Below, piece after piece: positions 956-4,559 of a stretch of DNA of 6,616 nucleotides. The position numbers and the translations under genes are program-made. The notes under the pieces were generated by a model. It searched no databases and was not told the origin of the DNA. It saw only the letters and a list, made by a program, of their open reading frames with translations. Origin of the DNA: a virus (lineage: Duplodnaviria > Heunggongvirae > Uroviricota > Caudoviricetes); IMG/VR virus record IMGVR_UViG_2874920711_000007, positions 1 to 6,616 of that record. One strand, written 5' to 3'. How positions within the stretch are numbered: position 1 is the stretch's first letter; every line of letters starts with the position of its first letter.

Positions 956-1522
956 TTAATCGCCTGGTCTGAACGCTCTCACCTCGTCCAGTGTGGGCAA
1001 CAGAGAAAGTTGTTCTTTCATCTCCCGCTGACAGCGATAAATCTCATCGTTGCGCTCAACAATGGCCTGCATCATCGCTGTGGCCAGTTCCTCAAGTTCC
1101 TGCGTCGTCAGTTGCACCTGCTGATTATCCGCATCGCTCCACGCCATATGTGTTTGTGCTGTGACAGATTTTGCCAGCATGACTACCGGGGACAGGCGGC
1201 CCAGTGAGTCGGGGCCAGCATTCCAGATACGACCGTTCCATTCAAACGTGAACGGCTTCGCCTCCTGTTCTGTGCGCCATGCTTCAATTTCCTGACGTCT
1301 GGCCTCTCTGGCCGCTTCCAGCATTTCTGGTGTCACAGTGAATGGGGCTATCTCACCCCATTTGCCGCTTTGCAGTTCCTGCCAGATTTGCTGCCCCGTC
1401 GGAGCGACATCATCAGCGGTGGCTGTGTAGGGGACTGCCTGGTCCCTGTCGTCAAAAAAAACGTCACAGTCTACTGCGCCACTTTCGGTATAACGGGGAT
1501 TAATGATTTTTTTAATTTCCAC
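956..1522 (-). CDS. Putative tail-fibre assembly/chaperone protein of the second fibre module (family not recognised; assigned by position)
   Basis: 188-aa ORF from GTG 1520-1522 (GAGGAA SD 6-7 nt upstream), starting 10 nt after the end of the fibre-2 distal segment. Stop TAA 956-958. It lacks the C-terminal signature of Mu U/lambda Tfa chaperones seen in the 2918..3448 gene, so function is inferred from position only. The ORF-track N-terminal extension to 1786 overlaps the fibre and reads as non-coding. Confidence 0.5.
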   Translation of the reverse strand: MEIKKIINPRYTESGAVDCDVFFDDRDQAVPYTATADDVAPTGQQIWQELQSGKWGEIAPFTVTPEMLEAAREARRQEIEAWRTEQEAKPFTFEWNGRIWNAGPDSLGRLSPVVMLAKSVTAQTHMAWSDADNQQVQLTTQELEELATAMMQAIVERNDEIYRCQREMKEQLSLLPTLDEVRAFRPGD

Positions 1523-1532
1523 AGTGCATTCC

Positions 1533-1883
1533 TCACGATGTGCGAATAAAAAGCCCGGGCATTGCGCCAGAGACATATGTATCCGGCACCCCGGACAGGG
1601 CGCAATATGACCCGGTAATGAATGCTCTGAACATCCCGTAATGAAATATTGTGGGTATACTATATGCGTTCCGGTGGGAGTACAGGGCGCTGAAATCCCC
1701 ACCGGTCCAGTCGTGAGCCTCTGTATGACCGCCCCTGACAAGTCTGATGTCTTTATCACCGTCAGCTTTTCCCTGGTACGCAGCAATAATCAGCCCGCCA
1801 ATGTCAGGGTCTCCCCATCTGTTGCGGACAGAGCTCGCCACGATTCTGTAAATAATATCTTCTGTGGCTATATTTATTTTCAC
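1533..1883 (-). CDS. Distal segment of side tail fibre 2: either the frameshifted C-terminus of the 1888..2931 gene or a separate small tip protein
   Basis: 116-aa ORF from GTG 1881-1883, beginning 4 nt after the TGA of the upstream fibre ORF and in its +1 frame. This frame is open upstream to a TAA at 1938-1940, so a single inserted base between 1891 and 1937 would fuse it to the fibre. No SD precedes the GTG. Protein-like composition. Confidence 0.4.
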   Translation of the reverse strand: MKINIATEDIIYRIVASSVRNRWGDPDIGGLIIAAYQGKADGDKDIRLVRGGHTEAHDWTGGDFSALYSHRNAYSIPTIFHYGMFRAFITGSYCALSGVPDTYVSGAMPGLFIRTS

Positions 1884-1887
1884 CCAG

Positions 1888-2931
1888 TCAGTCTGGATAT
1901 GGGCCAGTAGCAGTAGCGGGTGTGATAAATGGGGCCGTTAATGCCGTAAAAAGTAAGGGATTTGGCTCTGTACCGCGGTTCCCTTGTCTCAGGGCGTGCA
2001 TCAGTCCACCGGATGCTGAGCCCCCTTCAAACCGTGTGTCGGGTATAATGATGCCGTAGGGGCCAGCAACGGAATATTCACCTGGCAGCGCATTCCTTAC
2101 CCAGGCCAGGAAATCACTCTTAGTGTCAAAACGGATAACATCTTCAGGCAGAAAAGCACACCCAAAGCCGAATGCGCCGGGTATCGCCAGACGGCCTTTT
2201 GTCCGGTCGTAAATGTCGCTCTGTGCTTCCATCGTGGCCGCACTTTTCAGCCTCAGATTATCCCGGGACTTCTGTTGTGCCTTTTCGCCTGCTGCTGCGA
2301 TTTCTGACAGATGGTTAGCCATTTTCAGAGTGCCGGTCAGCGCAGCATCAATGTCATTTTTGGCCTGTTCTGCTGCGCGGGCATAACCTGCGGCATCCTG
2401 TGCGCTCTGTCCGGCTGCGGCTGCATTTGCTCCTGTGCTTGTCACATCTTCCGCAGTGGCCTTTCTGTCCTCAGCTGTGACGGTTGCATCCTGTCGGGCT
2501 TTCTCCGCAAAACGTTGTGCATCATCACGGGCCGTTGCGGCTGCCGCCACATCCTGCGCCGTCTGCTGTGCGTTTCCGGCTGCGGCCCCGGCGCTCTGCT
2601 GCGCCTGTTGCGCCAGCTCTTCGAATTTCTTCAGGGATTCCGGACGCAGGTCAATATCAGTTGCGCCCAGAAAATCATTCAGCGAACCGTCCGTTGAATC
2701 TTCATAAACGCGGATGACACCGATTTCTGAAAGGCACTGTGCACTCTGTGTCAGACGAACGCTGTACACGCCCGGCAGAACAGGGAAGTCGTACTCTCCA
2801 CTCTGTGTGGTGACGTGGCTGAAAACACTTTTCAGGATCCCTGCACGATTGTGCAGGGAGGTCAGTGTAATGGTTGCGCCGCCCAGCGGTTCTCCCGTGG
2901 GCGTTTTTATCACACCTTTAAGCTGCGGCAT
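1888..2931 (-). CDS. Side tail fibre protein, lambda Stf-like (N-terminal anchor domain plus Ala/Gln-rich fibrous shaft)
   Basis: 347-aa ORF. The N-terminus MPQLKGVIKTPTGEPLGG...GVYSVRLTQS...GVIRVYEDSTDGSLNDFL parallels the lambda Stf N-terminal domain (GVLKDGTGKP...TITVYEDSQPGTLNDFL, from memory), followed by roughly 130 aa of Ala/Gln/Asp-rich shaft. ATG 2929-2931 with GGAG 8 nt upstream; it overlaps the upstream chaperone stop by 14 nt. TGA at 1888-1890. Confidence 0.7.
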   Translation of the reverse strand: MPQLKGVIKTPTGEPLGGATITLTSLHNRAGILKSVFSHVTTQSGEYDFPVLPGVYSVRLTQSAQCLSEIGVIRVYEDSTDGSLNDFLGATDIDLRPESLKKFEELAQQAQQSAGAAAGNAQQTAQDVAAAATARDDAQRFAEKARQDATVTAEDRKATAEDVTSTGANAAAAGQSAQDAAGYARAAEQAKNDIDAALTGTLKMANHLSEIAAAGEKAQQKSRDNLRLKSAATMEAQSDIYDRTKGRLAIPGAFGFGCAFLPEDVIRFDTKSDFLAWVRNALPGEYSVAGPYGIIIPDTRFEGGSASGGLMHALRQGNRGTEPNPLLFTALTAPFITPATATGPYPD

Positions 2932-3448
2932 CGGGACGCTCCGGCCAGTTGATGGAATTAAAGGAGGCTTCGTCAGTAACGGTGCTTAAATCCAGTGTCT
3001 TTACCTCCCTGATATACGCCATCCACTGTGTAAGACGGGCTTTGTCATCGTCGCTGATGGTGCCCAGCTCCAGCTCGGTTTTCCAGTCGGAGGTGATGTC
3101 CCTTGCTTCATTCAGCAGGCTCTGGCGCTGTTTTTCTGCCAGCCGCAAATAATCAACAGGAACAGGAAGAACTTCGCCGTTTTTATAATACCAGCAGGCT
3201 TCAATGCCAAAGCCTTCCGGCAGTTCATCCACTTCCACAATGGTAAAACCAACGGGATAAAGACGGGATACGTCTTCCGCCATCGAATAAATCACGCCGG
3301 TTTCAGGATGCGTGCACAGCTTGTATTTCTTCGTGAATTTATCCAGGGATTCATAAAAGTCCTGCCCGTCTTCACTGCGGAAATACTGAATGCCTTCACC
3401 ATAAGGCATACCTTCAGGGTAATAACGCGTAACATTTCTGAGTTCCAT
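2918..3448 (-). CDS. tfa: Tail fibre assembly protein (Mu U / P2 G / lambda Tfa family)
   Basis: 176-aa product from ATG 3446-3448 with a strong AAGGAG SD 6 nt upstream; it begins MELRNVTRYYPEG. The C-terminal half (...AEKQRQSLLNEARDITSDWKTELELGTISDDDKARLTQWMAYIREVKTLDLS...NWPERP) matches the conserved chaperone C-terminus of this family. The ORF-track start at 3484 is an upstream extension overlapping the fibre gene. Confidence 0.8.
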   Translation of the reverse strand: MELRNVTRYYPEGMPYGEGIQYFRSEDGQDFYESLDKFTKKYKLCTHPETGVIYSMAEDVSRLYPVGFTIVEVDELPEGFGIEACWYYKNGEVLPVPVDYLRLAEKQRQSLLNEARDITSDWKTELELGTISDDDKARLTQWMAYIREVKTLDLSTVTDEASFNSINWPERPDAAA

Positions 3449-3462
3449 TATTTTCTCCTTAA

Positions 3463-4559
3463 TTAACCGGATACAGAGCGCCATGCGCCATTGATATAAA
3501 TCTGAGCCTGTTTGTAATACACACCACCGATATTGTCTGCTGTATTTTTTCCCGTATCCTGAACATAAATGCCTGACAACTGGCAGCCAGAAGGTGCGCG
3601 AAACCTCCAGGTAATTGTGGTACTGCCCGGGTTGTAAAACACCTCATTGGTGTACTGGAAATTACGCACAGCGCCGGGCTCGGTGGTGTTGATGGTGATA
3701 TCGCGGGTGCCATCAAACAGCACATTGTTAATCCTGCGGGCAGTCTGGAGTCTGGTTGCTGAGACCGCATTACCGTTTGCGGGGAGTGCCCCACGTCCGA
3801 TGCTGTTGGTTTGTTTCTGGTATTGTACTCACGTCGCCATCCGGGAGAGTAGGCGTCTCCGTGGTTGATGTAGGTGAACTGTGAGCTTGTCGTGCCGTTC
3901 GTGGCCGTTGTTGGTGTGGTCACCCTGATGGTCATGGCTGATTTGACGCCCATTACCTCAACAACTGCACCGGCCAACTGAATATTGCCGCAGCCGGTAT
4001 CGGTGATGATTTTATTGCCCGCATAAGCCCAGGAGCCTTTGCACATCCAGTAAGAATGGTTAAATGCTCCCTGTGAATCCAGCCAGTCAATAAACTGCGC
4101 CGTCGTCCAGGCTCCACTGTCGCCACCAATACTTACAGAACCACTGAAAGCACGGCCTGCTCCGATGTCTTTAACAAAATCGCTGGCGCTGTTTTTTCCG
4201 AGAATACCGCGAACAAAAGCACTGAGCGGCGTTAATGCCATTGTGTCTTTGCCGGTAAAATAAGGGAATGTATTATTCTGACCGGTTAATCCGGCAATAG
4301 CTCCGGCTGAACCACTGTTCGTAATAAACAGTTTTTTCAGCGCTGTCATAATCTGGTCGGTTGTGTTTTTATCCGGTTTGATATTTGCCTGCCGGAGTAT
4401 TTCCAGTAATTCAGACTGAATAATATTAAACCAGTCCGGCCCCGGATACGTGGGCGGAATACCGTTCCCGCCTTCGGTGAAATAAAGCGTTGTTTTGCTT
4501 AATTCAGCCGCGACAGGTGGCATTACCGGCACACCCGTCGGGTTATCCACATAAAACAT
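3463..4559 (-). pseudogene. Tail fibre protein, P2 gpH / Mu S-like, interrupted by a -1 frameshift (or sequencing indel)
   Basis: The N-terminal 240 aa or so (MFYVDNPTG...FPYFTGKDTMALTPLSAFVRGILGK...) are in one frame; that frame then degenerates into Cys/Pro-rich nonsense. The conserved fibre C-terminus (...VFYNPGSTTITWRF...YKQAQIYINGAWRSVSG) is in the -1 frame (ORF 3463..3723), which is open upstream to a TGA at 3829-3831. The shift therefore lies between 3724 and 3828. ATG 4557-4559, 3 nt after the gpI stop. Lower GC than the flanking baseplate genes. Confidence 0.7.

Follow-up and report, generated by a model that had tools for sequence, protein, structure and literature searches.

In phages Mu, D108 and SfMu, the tail-fibre genes lie on an invertible G segment served by the recombinase Gin, as they do on the C segment of phage P1, served by Cin. 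The N-terminal domain of the Ur-lambda side tail fibre (StfN) forms a 12-subunit collar at the junction between the tail tube and the tail tip (PMC12617516, PDB 9E7M), and the N-terminal domain of gp40 from the Vibrio phage XM1 anchors six collar-spike trimers to the neck of this simple myophage (PMC10457771, PDB 7KJK). The Shigella phage Sf14, which has a Mu-like baseplate, carries two fibre types at once (PMC11821841). Regarding fibre assembly, the DUF4376 protein gp27 is a required fibre chaperone in the Alteromonas phage V22 (PMC7289586, PMC10579305), and in the Campylobacter prophage CJIE1 the DUF4376 partner of the H-fibre is required for a functional fibre (PMC7882524). Here, we describe the fibre locus held by a stretch of 6,616 nucleotides (nt) of the IMG/VR virus record IMGVR_UViG_2874920711_000007 (positions 1 to 6,616, hereafter the window). 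This stretch is the tail-fibre end, in the distal part of the late operon, of a defective Mu-like transposable prophage. Between positions 956 and 4559, a Mu S-type fibre (fibre 1) and its chaperone Tfa are followed by a lambda Stf-type fibre (fibre 2) and a DUF4376 protein. We think it likely that, in the family to which the window belongs, two fixed and co-oriented fibre/chaperone pairs replace the invertible segment and are both made and mounted, the window copy itself being a defective remnant.

The organization of the window can be compared with that of Mu, D108 and SfMu. Shared are the gp46/47/48-type baseplate genes that come first, the S-like fibre, the U/U′-type chaperone and com-mom, yet the prophage is not a close relative of Mu, the baseplate proteins being ~36% identical. 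In contrast with these phages, the window is devoid of gin, of gix sites, of an opposite S′/U′ set and of a shared constant exon, and an unrelated fibre/chaperone pair occupies the interval from Tfa to the mom control region. All four genes of the fibre region lie on the minus strand, with no oppositely oriented set sharing a constant N-terminal exon, and they fill the whole 956-4559 interval, in keeping with the initial annotation, which had proposed two co-oriented fibre/chaperone modules in tandem. Read directly from the sequence, the stop codon of the preceding wedge gene (YmfQ) is separated by 3 nt from the ATG of fibre 1. An 11-nt gap separates fibre 1 from Tfa, with AAGGAG 7 nt upstream of the Tfa ATG at 3451; the Tfa stop codon lies inside fibre 2, with an overlap of 14 nt; and a 10-nt gap follows fibre 2, then a GTG at 1522 preceded by GAGGAA opens the DUF4376 gene. 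A scan for promoter or terminator signals inside the four-gene block returned none above shuffled expectation.

No homologue of Mu Gin is found in the window, where the best tblastn match (E=1.1) falls inside mom. A six-frame Pfam scan of the whole window, run on stop-masked (X) translations of its DNA, reports solely Baseplate_J, Phage_Mu_Gp48, Caudo_TAP, phage_tail_N, DUF4376 and Mom; no Resolvase or other recombinase domain appears in any of the six frames, and the plus strand of the window gives no Pfam match. The best match to gixL, gixR, hixL, hixR or the symmetric consensus covers 16/26 positions, as in shuffled sequences (maxima of 15-19), and the inverted repeats detected in the window do not exceed 29 nt at 72% complementarity, which is chance level. 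The guanine-plus-cytosine content (GC) is 0.59-0.60 in J and YmfQ, 0.50 in fibre 1 and 0.49 in Tfa. Because the domain, junction, Gin, gix, repeat and GC tests agree, the architecture is confirmed, as is the lack of an inversion system, and with them the earlier statements that neither strand holds a recombinase gene, that no gix-like repeats are visible and that the first fibre/chaperone module is lower in GC than the J/I genes. The fibre region also runs straight into the mom regulatory region, as had been proposed, since the 833-955 segment abuts the DUF4376 stop codon; 40 nt separate this codon from the first of the GATC clusters in the mom operator. The com-mom DNA is 87-88% identical to that of Mu, D108 and SfMu, and two of Mu's GATC (Dam) clusters are kept in this segment. 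In the alignment with Mu, similarity starts ~28 nt inside the 3′ end of gin and spans the GATC sites, which places the mosaic boundary with the Mu-like com-mom at the gin/mom junction.

The block formed by these genes is matched in ~190 of 5,426 complete E. coli genomes. Seven annotated E. coli prophage copies, found in six strains at different chromosomal sites, have one common gene order, and all seven read J, YmfQ, fibre, Tfa, PF08400 fibre, DUF4376, com and mom, with no recombinase. Searching IMG/VR with YmfQ yielded 31 loci, among which 19 close relatives reach far enough to be informative: in 19/19, Tfa is followed at once by a StfN domain, and 13 continue to com-mom. The Tfa stop codon overlaps the start of fibre 2 in all relatives examined. 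The premise that Mu-like phages usually invert their fibre genes stands for Mu, D108 and SfMu only and does not hold in the window's family, where a Gin homologue occurs in 0 of the 31 IMG/VR loci. The Stx2e phage phiP27 (L52-L57, NC_003356) and Rac-SA53 (tail1-tail4) have the same order, namely J, wedge, fibre, Tfa, StfN-type fibre and DUF4376-type gene, and no invertase. As in the window's family, the fibre block of phiP27 lies at the prophage end, and its fibre 1, fibre 2 and chaperone 2 fall in the same PHROGs (phrog_6859, phrog_2636 and phrog_1141, respectively). PhiP27 differs by its site-specific integration (an attR is annotated), by the lack of com-mom and by its fibre 2, which is 36% identical. 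Because ~190 genomes, the IMG/VR loci, phiP27 and Rac-SA53 share it, the four-gene layout devoid of invertase is the norm for the family and is not new, having been present in databases (GenBank) since phiP27. A literature search returned no paper that treats the phiP27, Rac-SA53 or window arrangement as a dual-fibre system. Distant relatives, with a YmfQ 57-60% identical, have a fibre, a Tfa and two more large genes. At locus L088 (9585-14191), a collar-domain fibre of 250 residues and a Tfa of 294 residues are followed by proteins of 737 and 247 residues with no Pfam match, which may be another kind of second fibre pair.

Fibre 1 has the traits of the Mu S/U-type fibres, namely an S-like N-terminus encoded right after the gp48-type wedge gene and, downstream, a Caudo_TAP Tfa homologous to Mu U/U′. 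Its residues 1-127 are 38% identical to Mu S (gp49, E 1e-22), and its residues 128-263 (window 3771-4178) are 69% identical to residues 38-174 of Mu S′, the G(-) fibre. The top PDB match is the Mu S/S′ fibre (8JU3, E 1.6e-82), and residues 1-82 match 5YVQ_A (E 2e-20). Since the N-terminus is family-specific, the centre Mu S′-like and the tip similar to that of E. coli STEC719, fibre 1 is a three-part mosaic, composed of family-conserved residues 1-128, the Mu S′-like residues 128-263 and a tip (residues ~262-365) common to STEC719. The former designation of this fibre as P2-H/Mu-S-type is thus retained for its Mu S part; the P2-H label was dropped, since neither DUF3751 nor any other Pfam domain is found in the fibre 1 of the window. 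A further PDB match, to a "short tail fiber" in 9CUY, involves the C-terminal 83 residues of fibre 1. The chaperone encoded downstream is of the Mu U type, as first assigned: it contains a Caudo_TAP domain (PF02413, 73.7 bits for a cut-off of 22.1), is 30% identical to Mu U′ (E 6e-25) and matches Mu U in PDB 5YVQ_B (E 1.2e-13). It is 92% identical to the Tfa proteins of loci L002 and L004 (STEC719), as against 31.5% for that of L001, in E. coli FDAARGOS_943. According to the summary of North et al. 2019 given in PMC7882524, the N-terminal domain of Mu Tfa binds to the fibre tip. Comparison with FDAARGOS_943 and the STEC relatives indicates that the Tfa N-terminal domain has been exchanged together with the fibre-1 tip. 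Of note, phrog_11571, a phage protein family uniting a Tfa-like N-terminal part and a C-terminal part of the DUF4376 kind, is matched both by residues 2-89 of the window Tfa and by residues 71-206 of the L001 DUF4376 protein, a sequence pattern that hints at Caudo_TAP and DUF4376 as interchangeable C-terminal chaperone modules.

The second fibre is of the lambda Stf type, as had been proposed. Its translation starts at a separate ATG, and the protein has an N-terminal anchor domain of its own, which is assigned to the prophage tail fibre N-terminal family (PF08400, 101 bits for a cut-off of 26.6) and is related to residues 1-94 of Ur-lambda Stf (PDB 9E7M, E 2e-9); residues 3-186 match XM1 gp40 (PDB 7KJK, E 7e-10). 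Residues 1-303 are 97% identical to the L001 protein. Across Mu-like loci, the first 105 residues are 80-100% identical and the remainder 31-97%, the length of the protein varying from 301 to 1037 residues within the family. Fibre 2 shares the PF08400 anchor with Ur-lambda Stf, and the frameshift in the stf gene of laboratory lambda recalls the split of fibre 2 described below (PMC12617516). However, it belongs to a contractile-tail phage with a Mu-type baseplate, its anchor is divergent and family-specific, and it is accompanied by a DUF4376 protein and not by a Caudo_TAP chaperone. Its genomic setting is accordingly not that of siphovirus lambda Stf, which comes after J and lom and has a Caudo_TAP Tfa as cognate chaperone: fibre 2 is preceded by a Mu-type baseplate block and followed by the DUF4376 gene, and the lambdoid relatives of the cassette (L023) also use DUF4376.

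The initial annotation had described the gene downstream of fibre 2 as unrelated. This did not hold, as the protein contains a C-terminal DUF4376 domain (PF14301, 61.2 bits for a cut-off of 25) and is therefore a member of a fibre-chaperone family. Its gene lies directly 3′ of a fibre gene, as expected of the DUF4376 chaperones, and likely starts at the GTG at 1522, yielding 188 residues, as judged from the junction and from the 188-residue homologues of L002 and phiP27. The protein belongs to phrog_1141 (E 1e-84), which also holds phiP27 L57, and is 99.5% identical to its L001 counterpart; a PDB search returned no sequence relative. V22 gp27 and the CJIE1 partner likewise combine a C-terminal PF14301 domain with a gene located immediately downstream of the fibre gene, but their N-terminal halves are unrelated to that of the window protein. 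By family membership, the latter is a putative chaperone of fibre 2. A variant of the second module is found in STEC719 (L004, 2256-4982), where a short StfN protein of 301 residues is followed by genes encoding 100, 456 and 50 residues. These separate genes replace the long fibre and DUF4376, and the 456-residue protein is an SGNH/GDSL hydrolase, which suggests a multi-protein or enzymatic distal end.

Comparison with related prophages mapped the mosaic junctions of the fibre modules and supported the idea of a horizontally exchanged host-range cassette. The segment 2994-4175, covering residues 129-365 of fibre 1 and residues 1-152 of Tfa, is unrelated to the otherwise 97-99% identical FDAARGOS_943 and is ~90-95% identical to STEC719 and STEC346. 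Further downstream in the operon, the segment 1014-2607, which comprises the DUF4376 gene and the distal two-thirds of fibre 2, has ~96% DNA identity to more than 50 IMG/VR contigs that share no other sequence with the window. One of these loci, L023 (matching over 3002-5033), is a lambdoid block encoding lambda I, J, Lom, Stf and DUF4376, followed by an IpaH-type E3 ligase gene. Its Stf is ~98% identical to fibre 2 from residue 106 on (106-468) and ~30% identical before. Because identity splits in this way at residue 106, fibre 2 can be divided into an anchor that depends on the type of tail and a shaft and tip that, with the chaperone, pass between Mu-like and lambdoid prophages. The IpaH-type gene beside the L023 cassette points to Shigella-type genomes and to an exchange of cassettes between sipho-type and myo-type prophages.

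In the window sequence as it stands, fibre 1, fibre 2, YmfQ and J each contain frameshifts, and the prophage carries a large internal deletion, so that the whole array could be seen as a decaying pseudogene cluster within a dead prophage remnant, with real frameshifts. Homology to L001 ends at 6269, inside the gp46 gene, and the sequence beyond, starting at 6272, corresponds to the repressor gene adjoining ner, MuA and MuB in E. coli RM9088, at the opposite prophage end. Since gp46 homology stops and a repressor-gene match follows, ~30 kb are missing, from the repressor gene to gp46. Lost with this interval are the genes for transposition and for the head, as well as most of those for the tail, and the prophage, which cannot make particles, is a defective remnant. 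The absence of MuA, MuB and ner from the window is due to this deletion at 6269/6270, relatives carrying them beside the same repressor gene. Compared with FDAARGOS_943, its nearest relative among E. coli prophages, the window shows eight deletions of 1 nt and one of 4 nt, which break J, YmfQ, fibre 1 and fibre 2, and protein comparison revealed a further 1-nt deletion in fibre 1; the 1-nt sites listed are 842, 1614, 1709, 1736, 2022, 3789, 4855-4858 and 5913, those at 2022, 1736, 1709 and 1614 being in fibre 2. However, the 1-nt events are all deletions, and each sits in a C or G homopolymer. An exact 40-mer across the deletion junction has no match among the genome contigs searched and a single one in IMG/VR, contig L008, which carries the identical junction (at ~3185). 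Over the 3,529 nt of window 3088-6616, this contig shows 0 mismatches, and it has one additional base at exactly 3789, 4855 and 5913. Fibre 1, YmfQ and J are intact in this contig, at 365, 194 and 358 residues. The 1-nt deletions of fibre 2 are private to the window against 48-54 of 52-54 related cassettes. For the left half of the window, another contig from its IMG genome (L028) is of no use as a check, since with 95% identity and 163 mismatches it represents a different copy of the prophage. Since a base-identical, independent contig is devoid of the three deletions it covers, the 1-nt deletions are most likely sequencing or assembly errors, proven for those at 3789, 4855 and 5913 and, on comparative grounds, probable for the others. 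The 4-nt allele is the sole natural polymorphism among the gene-breaking events of the window. We therefore regard real decay of the array as quite unlikely, and the lesson to be drawn is that most of what looks like pseudogenes in the window comes from sequencing errors in homopolymers. Inversion could also be conceived to act in trans, through a Pin or Gin enzyme of another prophage working on cryptic sites in the window, as Pin-family invertases are often present elsewhere in E. coli and Shigella genomes. The analysis of the window provided no evidence in support of this scenario, which is hardly credible: no gix/hix-like 26-mer rises above the shuffled controls, flanking inverted repeats are missing, and the co-oriented modules, each with its own start and anchor, offer no shared constant exon to be re-paired.

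The 4-nt allele raises another alternative, in which host range would be switched by slipped-strand changes at a tetranucleotide tract of fibre 2, turning the side fibre ON (fused) or OFF (split) in replacement of Gin inversion. With the 2-unit allele of the window, fibre 2 consists of two open reading frames (ORFs) of 350 and 117 residues that overlap by GTGA; 3-unit alleles fuse them into 468 residues. Among 46 cassettes with a full-length alignment, 14 have the split allele, and the count is 17 of 52 when the tract site alone is considered; L021, a Mu-like prophage with otherwise intact tail genes, has it too. In line with a switch, split and fused alleles are interspersed on the flanking-sequence tree of the 46 cassettes (at least 13 changes), two haplotypes identical over ±200 nt carry both alleles, the members of one cassette pair differ at 2/1347 sites and also in their tract alleles, and the downstream ORF of split alleles begins at a GTG overlapping the upstream TGA. 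Yet the tract comprises only 2-3 imperfect units, many fewer than classical contingency loci have. A CTGG unit deleted from a pair repeatedly, and in one direction, would explain the pattern equally well, and the alleles could also have been dispersed by recombination between prophages present in several copies. A third allele, (CTGA)2(CTGG)1, was considered as proof of re-expansion and rejected, since one C>T change in the fused allele yields the same sequence. The pattern is most simply read as the repeated loss of a CTGG unit where two were present, and we judge a slipped-strand switch very improbable. Similarly doubtful, if marginally less so, is a composite scheme in which the lambda-type fibre 2 is displayed along with the baseplate fibre, its cassette moves between Mu-like and lambdoid prophages, and the slipping tract toggles fused and split forms (OFF or two-piece) as a mutational substitute for Gin. 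Finally, the second module may be passive cargo, that is, a lambdoid Stf/DUF4376 cassette that was brought to the end of the late operon by recombination and that the Mu-like virion does not use. This would agree with the ~96% DNA identity of shaft, tip and chaperone to the cassettes of lambdoid ipaH prophages, with a fibre 2 that is often split or damaged further, and with family members devoid of most of the second module (L075). Against it, the first 105 residues are Mu-like-specific and well conserved, with ~30% identity to the lambdoid version, and this conservation of the anchor argues for selection on attachment to the Mu-like tail. The position of the module is also kept in phiP27, Rac-SA53 and more distant relatives, and the overlap between the Tfa stop and the fibre-2 start is constant among the relatives examined. 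Passive carriage thus appears unlikely, although it has the most in its favour among these alternatives.

The reading that we prefer for the family is the co-expression of two fixed fibres, because the invertase-free four-gene layout is the rule. A single late transcript would serve both pairs, and the virion would carry the two fibres together. The conserved N-terminus of fibre 1 presumably docks on the gp47/gp48 wedge, as in Mu S, and its tip co-varies with the N-terminal domain of Tfa. For fibre 2, the examples of Ur-lambda and XM1 suggest attachment by the StfN domain, probably as a collar or side fibre. XM1 and Sf14 are virulent phages unrelated in sequence to the window's family outside the shared domains, and the attachment site of fibre 2 is proposed here only by analogy. 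As both fibres are presumed to be mounted together, specificity would be changed by cassette swapping and not by inversion. Comparative data (an anchor 80-100% conserved next to a remainder 31-97% identical) speak for a function of both modules in the family. The initial proposal that host range is set by two co-expressed, fixed fibres thus stands as regards the layout and the likely function of both modules; co-expression itself we infer, and for the window copy the idea is moot because ~30 kb are deleted and fibre 2 is split. Several points weigh against co-expression of two functional fibres. The five deletions left of 3088 (842, 1614, 1709, 1736 and 2022) are judged solely on their being private to the window, and fibre 2 remains split into 350 and 117 residues after repair of the 1-nt sites. 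Extra damage is found in 5/14 split alleles and 4/30 fused ones, which hints that fibre 2 is dispensable or often lost, and the second module is truncated or replaced in L075 and L082.

If both fibres are mounted, widespread transposable prophages of E. coli and Shigella would recognise their hosts by two receptor-binding proteins at once. Their specificity would then shift by swapping cassettes, including with lambdoid phages, and not by Gin-type inversion, which would help to predict prophage host range and to pick fibre/chaperone pairs for engineering. The principle is not new, since dual-fibre phages, Stf-type collars on myoviruses and DUF4376 chaperones have already been described.

The features of the window are collected in Table 1. 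Every recognisable gene lies on the minus strand except the one at 6270-6616. The Mom domain (PF25680) of the window mom scores 248 bits in Pfam.

Table 1. Features of the window, listed in the order of their coordinates.
Feature	Positions	Strand	Evidence or remark
mom, adenine-modification enzyme	1-726	-	Window begins at the mom stop codon; 93% amino acid identity to Mu Mom over residues 1-241
com, translational activator of mom	647-832	-	71% amino acid identity to Mu Com (E 5e-27); relatives carry the Com annotation
mom regulatory region, 123 nt	833-955	-	Abuts the DUF4376 gene stop; two GATC clusters conserved with Mu
Chaperone 2, DUF4376 protein (putative)	956-1582 (likely start 1522)	-	PF14301
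Fibre 2, lambda Stf-type	1533-2931	-	PF08400
Tetranucleotide tract in fibre 2	1885-1892	-	(CTGA)(CTGG) on the coding strand, 2-unit allele
Chaperone 1, Tfa, Mu U/U′ type	2918-3451	-	PF02413
Fibre 1, Mu S-type baseplate fibre	3463-4559	-	365 residues after restoring 1 nt at 3789
YmfQ / Mu gp48-type baseplate wedge gene	4563-5146	-	PF10076 matches in two frames; 1-nt deletion at 4855-4858
Baseplate J / Mu gp47-type gene	5131-6206	-	PF04865, 165 bits; 36% identity to Mu gp47; 1-nt deletion at 5913
gp46-like gene, 3′ stub, 74 nt	6196-6269	-	Ends at the internal deletion junction
Mu c-type repressor gene, 3′ part, from the prophage left end	6270-6616	+	92% identity to the E. coli RM9088 "DNA-binding protein"

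In E. coli FDAARGOS_943 (NZ_CP065615.1; L001 and L067), the block occurs at up to 7 places. At least two of these copies are full right ends of Mu-like prophages located at different chromosomal sites, which fits replicative transposition, and one copy is flanked by IS600 and IS5.

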